From Dehalococcoidia bacterium (GTDB lineage: Bacteria; Chloroflexota; Dehalococcoidia; Lucifugimonadales; UBA2985): 64,000 nucleotides of DNA. The stretch spans positions 21,373 through 85,372 of the forward strand of contig DAOUKJ010000040.1 of the NCBI GenBank assembly GCA_034421435.1, written 5' to 3'. The position numbers were made by a program, and so were the translations under genes. The notes below the pieces were generated by a model. It searched no databases. It saw only the letters and a list, made by a program, of their open reading frames with translations, and was not told the origin of the DNA. Positions 33,501 to 35,572 of the stretch are shown piece by piece (positions within the stretch are counted from its first letter, which is position 1; every line of letters starts with the position of its first letter).

Positions 33501-34091
33501 ATGGCCGAAAAGCAGCTGATGTCCCAGGACGAGATCCAGCGGGCACTCAGCCGGATTGCGCACGAGGTCCTGGAGCGCAACCGTGGCGTCGACGACCTGG
33601 TGCTTGTCGGCATGCACACCAGGGGCGTGCCACTGGCCCACCGCCTGGCCGATCGGATCCGGCGATTCGAGGGGCGCGATGTCCCCGTGGGCGCACTCGA
33701 CATCCAGCTGTATCGCGACGACTTGACCGTACGCGGCTTGATTTCCAACCCACCCACGGACATTCCCGTTTCCATCGCCGACGCCAAGGTCGTGCTGGTA
33801 GACGACGTGCTGTTCACCGGCCGCAGCATCCGAGCCGCGATGGACGCGCTAATGGATCTGGGCCGGCCGCGCCAGATTCAGCTGGCCGTGCTCGTGGATC
33901 GCGGCCACCGCGAGCTGCCCATCCGTGCCGACTACGCCGGCAAGAATGTGCCCACGTCCACCGGCGAGCGCGTGGAGGTGCGCCTGGCCGAGATCGACGG
34001 AGACGACGCCGTGATAATCCAGAGAGCGCCACGCCAACCGGACCGCTCCACTTCTCGAGAGGTCGACGCCGTGACGGAGCCATCGTCATGA
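33501..34091 (+). CDS. pyrR: Bifunctional pyr operon regulator / uracil phosphoribosyltransferase PyrR
   Basis: The ATG at 33501 gives [27 protein letters not shown], with [20 protein letters not shown] (PRPP motif). Confidence 0.95.
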
Positions 34092-35572
34092 GCGAGAGCA
34101 ACGGCGTGAGCCGCCTGGCCGGTCGCAGCACAATTTCCGTGGACGACCTGAGCCTGGACGACATCCAGGCTATCTTCGATACCGCAGACCGCATCGTTCA
34201 AGACAGGGCGTCGTTCTACGGCTCGGCGGCCGGCAGGATAGTGGCTACGCTGTTCTACGAGCCAAGCACCAGGACGCGCCTCTCCTTTGAGGCCGCTATT
34301 CAGAGGCTGGGCGGCGGCGCCATTTCCACGTGGGACGTGAGCGCCTCATCCGTGTCCAAGGGCGAGTCGCTTGCGGACACGGTGCGCGTGGTCGGCGCGT
34401 ACGGAGACCTAATCGTCGTGAGGCATCCGAACGAGGGAGCGGCGAAGCTTGCCGCGGAGTACTCGCCGGTGCCGGTCATCAACGCCGGTGACGGCGGCCA
34501 CGAGCACCCGACCCAAACGCTCTGCGACCTCTACACCTTGCGGGAGCGTCACGGCTCCGTCAAGGGCCTCAACGTGGCTCTCTGCGGTGACCTGCAGCAC
34601 GGCCGCACGGTCCACTCACTGGCCTTCGCACTGGCTCGCATGGAGGCCAACATCGTCTTCGTGCCTGGGGCCGGCAACGAGGTGCCAGACTACGTTCTCC
34701 GCCGCCTTCAGCGAGACTACCACGCGCACATTCAGCGAGAACGCCTTGGCGTCCTGAGCGCGCTCTTCGACAGGCCGCAGATGGAGGACGGGCCCGCCAC
34801 CGTGAACGCAATCTACATCACTCCCAGCGAGCCGCATCAGCTTGCCATGTCCTCCGTGGAGGGCACCACGCTGGAGTACCGCGTGGGCAGCGGCGAGTCG
34901 CTTTCGCTGTACGTGACGCGCCGACAGACTGAGCGCGGCAGCGGCGCGGCAGGCGAAGGGGGGTACCCTGCGGTGACGCCGGACGTACTGAAAGACAGCC
35001 ACTTCGAGAACATCTCGATTCTGCATCCGCTTCCCCGCGTGGACGAGCTCAGCCCGGAGGTGGACCAGGACCCGCGAAGCCTGTACTTCCGGCAGGCAGC
35101 CATCGGCATACCGGTGCGCATGTCGCTGCTGTGGCACACGCTGGGCCTCGGCGACGAGACGGCGCCTCCCCGCAAACAGCCCTACGAGCAGGAAGTCAAG
35201 GGCCTGCGCTACACTCACGCTGGATTCGACTGCACCAAAGCTACGTGCATCGCCAACCGCGAGAGCCGTTTCGCCAAGCCCCAGTTTGAGGTAATCCGCG
35301 ACGAGGAGTACATGCTGCGATGCCTATACTGCGACCAGGAGACCCGCGGCGCCTACGTGGGCAACACGGAGTCCCGTTTCTACTACCCGTCTGAGCTGCT
35401 GGATAGATTCCGGCCGCCCGTGCGCCCCGACCACGTGCGCTTCCACCGCACCGCGGAGTCGGCGGAGTCGGCGGGGTTCAGGCGCGCCTCCGAAAGATGG
35501 GACAACCTGCCGCCCAAGCCCGTTGAGGTGGCACAACGATGGCTTGACATAGCCGTGGGGAGCAGCCAATGA
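34088..35572 (+). CDS. pyrB: Aspartate carbamoyltransferase catalytic chain fused to a PyrI-type zinc domain plus C-terminal extension
   Basis: The ATG at 34088 overlaps the pyrR stop (ATGA). It has STRTR, HPTQ and HPLPR motifs. At about residue 380 it reads [39 protein letters not shown], the PyrI C-terminal Zn-domain pattern. 494 aa in total. The track's 702-aa version (from 33464) is a frame shadow over pyrR. Confidence 0.9.

Follow-up and report, generated by a model that had tools for sequence, protein, structure and literature searches.

A natural aspartate transcarbamoylase of Dehalococcoidia joining PyrB to the zinc domain of PyrI and a sunset-like tail

We analyzed a 64,000-nucleotide stretch of DNA from a Dehalococcoidia bacterium (assembly GCA_034421435.1, contig DAOUKJ010000040.1, positions 21,373 to 85,372 of the forward strand), here referred to as the window and numbered from its first letter. 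It contains a fused pyrB gene at 34088..35572 (+), which encodes 494 amino acids (aa) plus stop, and in which the catalytic chain of aspartate transcarbamoylase (ATCase), carrying an insertion, is followed in the same reading frame by the zinc domain of the regulatory chain PyrI and by a sunset-like tail. The nucleotide-binding domain of PyrI is found neither in the protein nor elsewhere in the window. Bacterial ATCases are grouped into class A, associated with dihydroorotase (DHOase) or pseudo-DHOase, class B, associated with PyrI dimers, and class C, which are bare trimers (PMC7053772). On balance, we favor the view that the present protein is a non-allosteric enzyme derived from class B, whose zinc domain would serve as a tethered clamp and whose expression would be under the control of PyrR.

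Catalytic chain and zinc domain

An original prediction, made from the sequence letters alone, had recognized the motifs STRTR, HPTQ and HPLPR in this frame and had proposed that the chain continues without a stop into a C-x4-C...C-x2-C domain of the PyrI type. Both proposals are borne out by domain searches, structure comparison and family conservation. The carbamoyl-phosphate-binding domain lies at aa 13–153 (34124..34546, +; Pfam OTCace_N, PF02729, 157 bits) and contains STRTR (aa 60–64), the S88/K91 loop, R112 and HPTQ (aa 140–143). The aspartate-binding domain at aa 160–353 (34565..35146, +) is matched in two stretches by Pfam OTCace (PF00185, 58 bits) and contains R173, R278, Q280 and HPLPR (aa 313–317). 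Moreover, the curated model of the ATCase catalytic chain, TIGR00670, gives 267.1 bits against a cut-off of 236.95. In an alignment of 103 homologues, S60–R64, S88, K91, R112, H140–Q143, R173, R278, Q280 and H313–R317 are all invariant. We mapped them onto STRTR, the S80/K84 loop, R105, HPTQ, R167, R229, Q231 and HPLPR, which are catalytic and substrate-binding residues of the E. coli enzyme. As each of these has its equivalent here, the catalytic chain appears to be intact.

The best sequence matches in the PDB are catalytic chains of class B, with E 1e-74 for P. abyssi 1ml4 and 1e-67 for M. jannaschii 2rgw. The E. coli chain follows at about 1e-59, and the representatives of class C and class A are weaker still, at 1e-34 for B. 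subtilis and 2e-22 for A. aeolicus. Judged by sequence, the catalytic chain is thus of the class-B (E. coli/archaeal) lineage. The AlphaFold2 (AF2) model of the full chain has a predicted local distance difference test score (pLDDT) of 82 and a predicted template modelling score (pTM) of 0.85, with a Foldseek template modelling (TM) score of 0.85 to P. abyssi 1ml4. Foldseek searches with this full-length model return catalytic chains only and are uninformative about the C-terminal module.

A variable linker at aa 354–371 (35147..35200, +), consisting of poorly conserved columns and devoid of AF2 secondary structure, leads into the PyrI-type zinc domain at aa 372–420 (35201..35347, +). Pfam PyrI_C (PF02748) matches aa 380–420 with 28.8 bits (cut-off 23.4, E 1e-6), and OTCace_N, OTCace and PyrI_C are therefore all present in one chain, as the original prediction expected. 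The four cysteines, encoded at 35231-35233, 35246-35248, 35321-35323 and 35330-35332 (+), are arranged as C382-x4-C387...C412-x2-C415, and no stop separates the catalytic chain from the zinc domain. Since all four are invariant in the 103 homologues, the domain is neither a chance match nor a frameshift artefact.

We then built a profile from the last 128 residues of 30 family members and searched it against the PDB. It found the PyrI chains of M. jannaschii, E. coli, M. profunda and S. acidocaldarius (E 6.5e-8 to 8e-5), and the four cysteines aligned with C109, C114, C138 and C141 of E. coli PyrI, the comparison by which the domain was to be checked. When the C-terminal module was modelled alone, AF2 gave a pLDDT of 89 and a pTM of 0.82, and the top 23 Foldseek matches of this model were all PyrI chains with a probability of at least 0.95 (38–51 aligned columns; root-mean-square deviation 1.4–4.9 Å, and no more than 2.9 Å in 22 of the 23). 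The next match behind them was the N-terminal domain of Ada (N-Ada). In the full-chain model, aa 360–470 have a pLDDT of 88–95, which together with the pTM of 0.85 suggests a defined docked position rather than a floppy appendage. The zinc domain and the sunset/Ada-like unit behind it are predicted to form one compact C-terminal fold.

Absence of the allosteric domain

To search for the rest of PyrI, we made a hidden Markov model (HMM) of length 145 from 33 pyrI genes harvested from fetched loci and the E. coli sequence. It was run on six-frame translations of the 64-kb window and of 80 listed loci. These loci are the matches listed when GTDB species genomes were scanned. They do not include close relatives of the window, and the numbers of taxa among them are not a census. 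In the window, the sole match of the HMM covers its positions 101–139 and lies inside the fused open reading frame (ORF). Likewise, within ±8 kb of 38 listed fused loci only HMM positions from about 80 to 140 are matched, always within pyrB. The curated PyrI model TIGR00240 reaches 18.3 bits against a cut-off of 148.55 and aligns at model positions 105–142 only, leaving out the N-terminal nucleotide-binding and dimerizing domain. With E. coli PyrI as the query, tblastn had no match in the window and found the zinc domain alone in the fused loci. By comparison, a near-full-length pyrI (E at most 1e-9) was found directly downstream in 31 of the 42 ordinary pyrB loci among the matches listed; another ordinary locus, L036, ends at a contig edge.

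The original prediction had held that the allosteric domain is absent from the fused protein and that the operon has no separate pyrI gene. Both points stand, as the two PyrI models reach only the zinc part of the protein and the HMM finds nothing else in the six frames of the window. A hidden pyrI, or an allosteric domain split off nearby, was also considered and rejected, given that in the window and the listed fused loci tblastn and the HMM show no match beyond the zinc domain.

The C-terminal tail and the insertion in the aspartate domain

After C415 the chain extends for another 79 aa (predicted: about 80), and aa 416–494 contain no cysteine. The tail can be divided into two parts. First, aa 421–467 (35348..35488, +) resemble the sunset and Ada N-terminal domains in matches to PF02805, to the NCBIfam sunset model and to N-Ada structures in the PDB. 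Second, aa 468–494 (35489..35569, +) are a clade-specific C-terminal extension, predicted to be helical, with AF2 helices at 469–473 and 485–492. In the alignments these last approximately 27 aa are limited to close relatives of the window, and shorter family members end without them.

The window's own tail matches weakly: Ada_Zn_binding (PF02805) gives 14.6–15.9 bits (E 0.03; cut-off 23) and the NCBIfam sunset model (NF051437) gives 11.9–17.2 bits (cut-off 27). Across the family, PF02805 matches 22 of 30 members, with a best E of 7.2e-6, and one of them, L013, passes the cut-off at 24.6 bits; NF051437 matches 29 of 35 tails, with a best E of 7.9e-11. In the PDB, a profile of the tail alone finds E. 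coli N-Ada (1adn, 1wpk, 1u8b and 1zgw; E 0.002–0.004). The stretch ...enlvFFeSeeeAeaaGFr... of the profile is aligned there with Ada 44–74, in the C-terminal half of the zinc-binding domain. A beta-alpha core of the form ...N.vFF.S..eA..aGFr... appears to be shared with both families, and the C-terminal location is that of sunset domains. Unlike Ada, the tail lacks the four zinc-ligand cysteines (C38, C42, C69 and C72), and the family has residues other than cysteine at the positions of C69 and C72. Judging from the names of NCBIfam models, sunset is a small C-terminal add-on of the ribosomal proteins L4, L17, L20 and S2 and of ArfC; our literature search for the sunset domain returned no relevant description. 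The tail of the fused protein is rich in Arg and Lys.

The family-specific insertion lies at aa 228–271 (34769..34900, +), between helix H8 and strand S9 of the aspartate-binding domain. It had been put at about 90 aa, but it comprises about 43 aa in the multiple alignment, and two other measurements lead to the same revision. The distance from HPTQ to HPLPR is 173 residues here versus 129–133 in 59 measurable ordinary or tail-less listed loci, and the HMMER alignment with P. abyssi 1ml4 is interrupted at aa 207/250. Within the insertion, the motif AIYxTPxxPHQLA is nearly invariant among the 103 aligned homologues, yet the monomer model has a low pLDDT of 42–67 in this region. Tail and insertion occur together in the window and in 20 of the 21 tailed loci among the matches listed, and the insertion is missing from 17 of the 18 tail-less fusions listed. 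The exceptions are L018, with a tail and almost no insertion, and L017, with an insertion and no tail.

Distribution and origins

In the protein database we found at least 120 clusters of the fused protein at 44–94% identity, among which 117 have all three Pfam domains recorded. Most clusters are 464–494 aa long, and those named come from metagenome-assembled genomes (MAGs) of Chloroflexota/Dehalococcoidia, the phylum in which the original prediction had suggested looking. In fact, the Pfam architecture is already visible in precomputed database annotations, although some members are annotated merely as hypothetical proteins or as plain catalytic subunits, and no curated NCBIfam model matching the protein describes the combination of PyrB, zinc domain and sunset. 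In our literature search a zinc-only PyrB fusion, tailed or tail-less, was not found described. An exhaustive search with the C-terminal 128 aa yielded no more than 25 clusters at 50% identity, each a fused protein or a fragment of one. Short matches that might be taken for stand-alone proteins of zinc domain and tail still carry the last part of the catalytic chain at their start (HPLPRVDE..., MAIL..LG) and were discarded as gene fragments. The GTDB scan added, among the matches listed, MAGs labelled as Planctomycetota, Verrucomicrobiia and Alphaproteobacteria (Micropepsaceae, Rhizomicrobium, Hyphomicrobiales), labels that may be wrong.

Fusions of PyrB and the zinc domain also exist without the tail, in at least 18 loci, where the protein ends 4–16 aa past the CxxC pair. 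Among the matches listed they belong to Alistipes, Muribaculaceae, Christensenellaceae, Oscillospiraceae, Armatimonadota and one Dehalococcoidia. The Alistipes locus L033 (2214-3299) and its kin encode such proteins of about 360–370 aa with no pyrI nearby; the other tail-less loci include L019, L024, L027, L029, L035, L038, L039, L041 and L045, as well as L046, L052, L056, L057, L062, L070 and L072. The original prediction had called a zinc-only fusion with a further tail a distinct architecture. This has to be narrowed: the zinc-only fusion as such is common in gut Bacteroidales, Clostridia and Armatimonadota, and what sets the present proteins apart is that they unite the insertion, the zinc domain and the sunset-like tail.

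In a bootstrapped neighbor-joining tree of the catalytic cores, all tailed proteins fall into one clade (83 of 100 replicates), whose nearest neighbors are the tail-less fusions L017, L019 and L027 (87 of 100). Insertion, zinc domain and tail thus jointly mark a single clade, and by this tree the tail and the insertion were gained once. All zinc-bearing chains together were monophyletic in none of the 100 bootstraps; the zinc-only fusion therefore arose at least twice, and this repetition argues that the zinc domain is useful in itself.

Two kinds of variants were observed beside the regular members. L005 (CAVTUQ010000007.1, 7947-9941) has a single frame of 664 aa, in which PyrB, the zinc domain and the sunset-like tail are followed by a PyrR-type phosphoribosyltransferase (aa 486–622); it is either a four-part fusion or the result of a lost stop or an assembly error. 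P0141 (420 aa) and P0138 (190 aa) are divergent, having lost STRTR, HPTQ and HPLPR and kept the zinc domain and the sunset-like tail, and from their sequences they are possible pseudoenzyme paralogues.

Operon and neighboring genes

The fused gene belongs to an operon in the order PyrR leader, pyrR, fused pyrB, pyrC, carA, vapB/vapC and carB. The PyrR-binding leader (attenuator) at 33385..33502 (+), 5' of pyrR, is matched by Rfam RF00515 with 60.8 bits (gathering score 54), and a GC-rich hairpin followed by a T-run can be read at its 3' end. This leader with its terminator-like hairpin directly adjoins the start codon of pyrR (33501..34091, +), a regulator of the phosphoribosyltransferase type (Pfam Pribosyltran, E 5.7e-21). 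With the RF00515 element upstream and pyrR inside, this is a PyrR-attenuated pyr operon. The stop of pyrR overlaps the ATG of the fused pyrB in ATGA, and the stop of the latter overlaps in the same way the ATG of pyrC (35569..36891, +), a dihydroorotase matched by Pfam Amidohydro_1 and DHOase. The remaining operon extends over 36845..42028 (+) and comprises carA, vapB/vapC and carB, with Pfam matches to CPSase_sm_chain/GATase, VapB_antitoxin and PIN.

Some further features of the region were observed. The vapB antitoxin (PF09957) and the vapC PIN toxin (PF01850) between carA and carB occupy 38017-38684 (+); the pair has 4-nucleotide overlaps, GTGA and TTGA, and is therefore apparently co-transcribed with the pyrimidine biosynthetic genes. 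A tRNA-Sec gene at 28539-28632 (+; RF01852, 71.8 bits) implies the use of selenocysteine in the source organism. A NUDIX hydrolase at 31745-32452 (+) has an N-terminal extension with a zinc-ribbon-like CxxC...CxxC pattern. For the ORF of 263 aa at 32650-33441 (-), which is divergent from the pyr operon, Pfam gave no match.

Comparison with known ATCases

A complete PyrB-PyrI fusion exists in Thermotoga (Chen et al. 1998, as cited in PMC4581275), in agreement with the original prediction. As in the Thermotoga maritima type, catalytic and regulatory sequences are here joined in one chain with the catalytic part N-terminal; however, the Thermotoga type keeps the entire regulatory chain and is allosteric, whereas the window protein keeps only the zinc half. 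The Thermotoga-type full fusion model (NF009916/PRK13376) accordingly fails to fit, giving 94.9 bits against a cut-off of 800 at aa 10–207 only.

The class B holoenzyme (2c3:3r2) has the same catalytic lineage, and its PyrI C-terminal domain is homologous to the zinc domain described here and shares the four cysteines. In the window protein, by contrast, the zinc domain sits on the catalytic polypeptide, together with an additional 43-aa insertion and the sunset-like tail. Because the allosteric, dimerizing domain was not found, the protein should be unable to make regulatory dimers like those of E. coli, and the classical bridge between trimers is not expected. The tail-less fusions, represented by Alistipes L033 with 361 aa, likewise consist of PyrB followed by PyrI_C only, without pyrI nearby, but they lack the insertion (spacing 129–133), stop 4–16 aa after CxxC, and in the case of the gut group are placed elsewhere in the tree.

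The nearest functional analogue is an engineered one. Markby, Zhou and Schachman (PNAS, 1991) are reported to have shown that an isolated 70-aa zinc domain of PyrI binds the catalytic trimer stably and alters its kinetics. In that complex, as presumably in the window protein, zinc domains are attached to a catalytic trimer and allosteric domains are absent. It differs in being artificial and non-covalent, while in the window protein the fusion is natural and covalent and comes with a further domain and the insertion. Finally, the B. subtilis type of class C shares the gene order, a PyrR attenuator followed by pyrR-pyrB-pyrC-carA-carB, and an enzyme presumed to be unregulated. Nevertheless, B. 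subtilis PyrB is distant (E 1e-34 versus 1e-74 for class B), and class C has no zinc domain.

Interpretation

The reading we favor, with somewhat better than even confidence, is a class-B-derived ATCase without allostery. In a class-B lineage, the half of the regulatory chain that binds nucleotides would have been lost and the zinc half retained, fused to the C terminus of the catalytic chain. The C-terminal module would dock on the catalytic chain approximately at the site that the PyrI zinc domain occupies in the E. coli holoenzyme. Rather than sensing nucleotides, it would be a permanent structural clamp there, stabilizing or tuning the catalytic trimer. Regulation by CTP/ATP would then be lacking, and control of the pathway would have shifted to expression through the PyrR attenuator. 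Quaternary assembly without allostery, which the original prediction had foreseen, would be in line with this.

Several points weigh against this reading. The tail and the insertion co-occur and are conserved, although a simple clamp needs neither and the tail-less fusions do without them. The conserved insertion with its low pLDDT hints, as far as the model goes, at a contact with another subunit or a ligand for which a clamp offers no explanation. In addition, a pyrR adjoining pyrB was seen solely in the clade of the window, and a pyrI-like allosteric protein may be encoded elsewhere in the genome, as our search covered the 64-kb window.

The clamp model does not explain why tail and insertion travel together. 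This point favors an assembly device making contacts between subunits or trimers, and as an account of the whole protein we regard it as possible but doubtful. According to it, the sunset-like tail and the insertion in the aspartate domain would replace the regulatory dimers and bridge two catalytic trimers, by contacts of tail with tail or of the tail of one trimer with the insertion of the other. The outcome would be a (c-Zn-tail)6 particle with homotropic cooperativity and no nucleotide control. Besides the joint occurrence of the two elements, the AIYxTPxxPHQLA segment would fit, as near invariance with low confidence in a monomer model is a pattern typical of interface segments. There is also an analogy, in that the zinc domain of the T-state E. 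coli enzyme additionally contacts the aspartate domain of the other trimer (the r1-c4 interface). On the other hand, the equivalents of K164/Y165/E239, which form the inter-trimer T-state links in E. coli, are unconserved, and L018 and L017 show that either element can occur with little or nothing of the other.

We consider it unlikely that the basic tail is instead a module for a ligand or a nucleic acid, binding a phosphate-bearing compound, RNA such as the pyr leader, or PyrR, and so giving a regulatory input unlike the lost nucleotide site of PyrI. Its Arg/Lys-rich composition, its resemblance to the DNA-backbone-binding N-Ada domain and to the add-on of ribosomal proteins, and the continuation of the L005 tail into a PyrR domain would all agree with such a role. 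However, the conserved positions of the tail (Y432, F453, A459) are hydrophobic or structural rather than polar and ligand-binding, all four zinc/methyl-acceptor cysteines of Ada are missing, the window tail scores under the curated cut-offs, and L005 is a single case and a possible assembly error.

A frameshift or misassembly joining pyrB to a degraded remnant of pyrI, with a non-functional C-terminal part, is suggested by the unusual length only and can be dismissed, because more than 100 clusters from many independent assemblies share this uninterrupted ORF, the four cysteines are invariant and the tail motifs conserved, AF2 folds the module confidently, and no frame of the window shows a trace of an allosteric domain or of the separate pyrI that a frameshift would have exposed.

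A broader reading, which we put forward as speculation with the odds clearly against it, is that insertion, zinc domain and sunset-like tail together make a fourth design of bacterial ATCase. The added elements would provide inter-trimer contacts or a new ligand or RNA site, giving cooperativity or regulation without the nucleotide-binding domain of PyrI. Such an enzyme might even be physically coupled to PyrR, because the PyrB-zinc-sunset-PyrR fusion of L005 hints at it.

Biological significance

ATCase is the textbook model of allosteric regulation. The protein described here is a natural and conserved enzyme in which the zinc half of the regulatory chain has been kept and the nucleotide-sensing half discarded, and its architecture, although conserved, is unstudied. 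Its conservation, together with the independent origin of similar fusions, suggests an independent function of the zinc domain, for instance in stabilizing the trimer or tuning its activity, an idea previously supported mainly by reconstruction in vitro. The fused family thus offers ready-made material on the role of the zinc domain without allostery, and the poorly understood sunset domain gains a new and tractable enzymatic context. If the reading as a fourth design is true, the organization of bacterial ATCases would extend beyond classes A, B and C.

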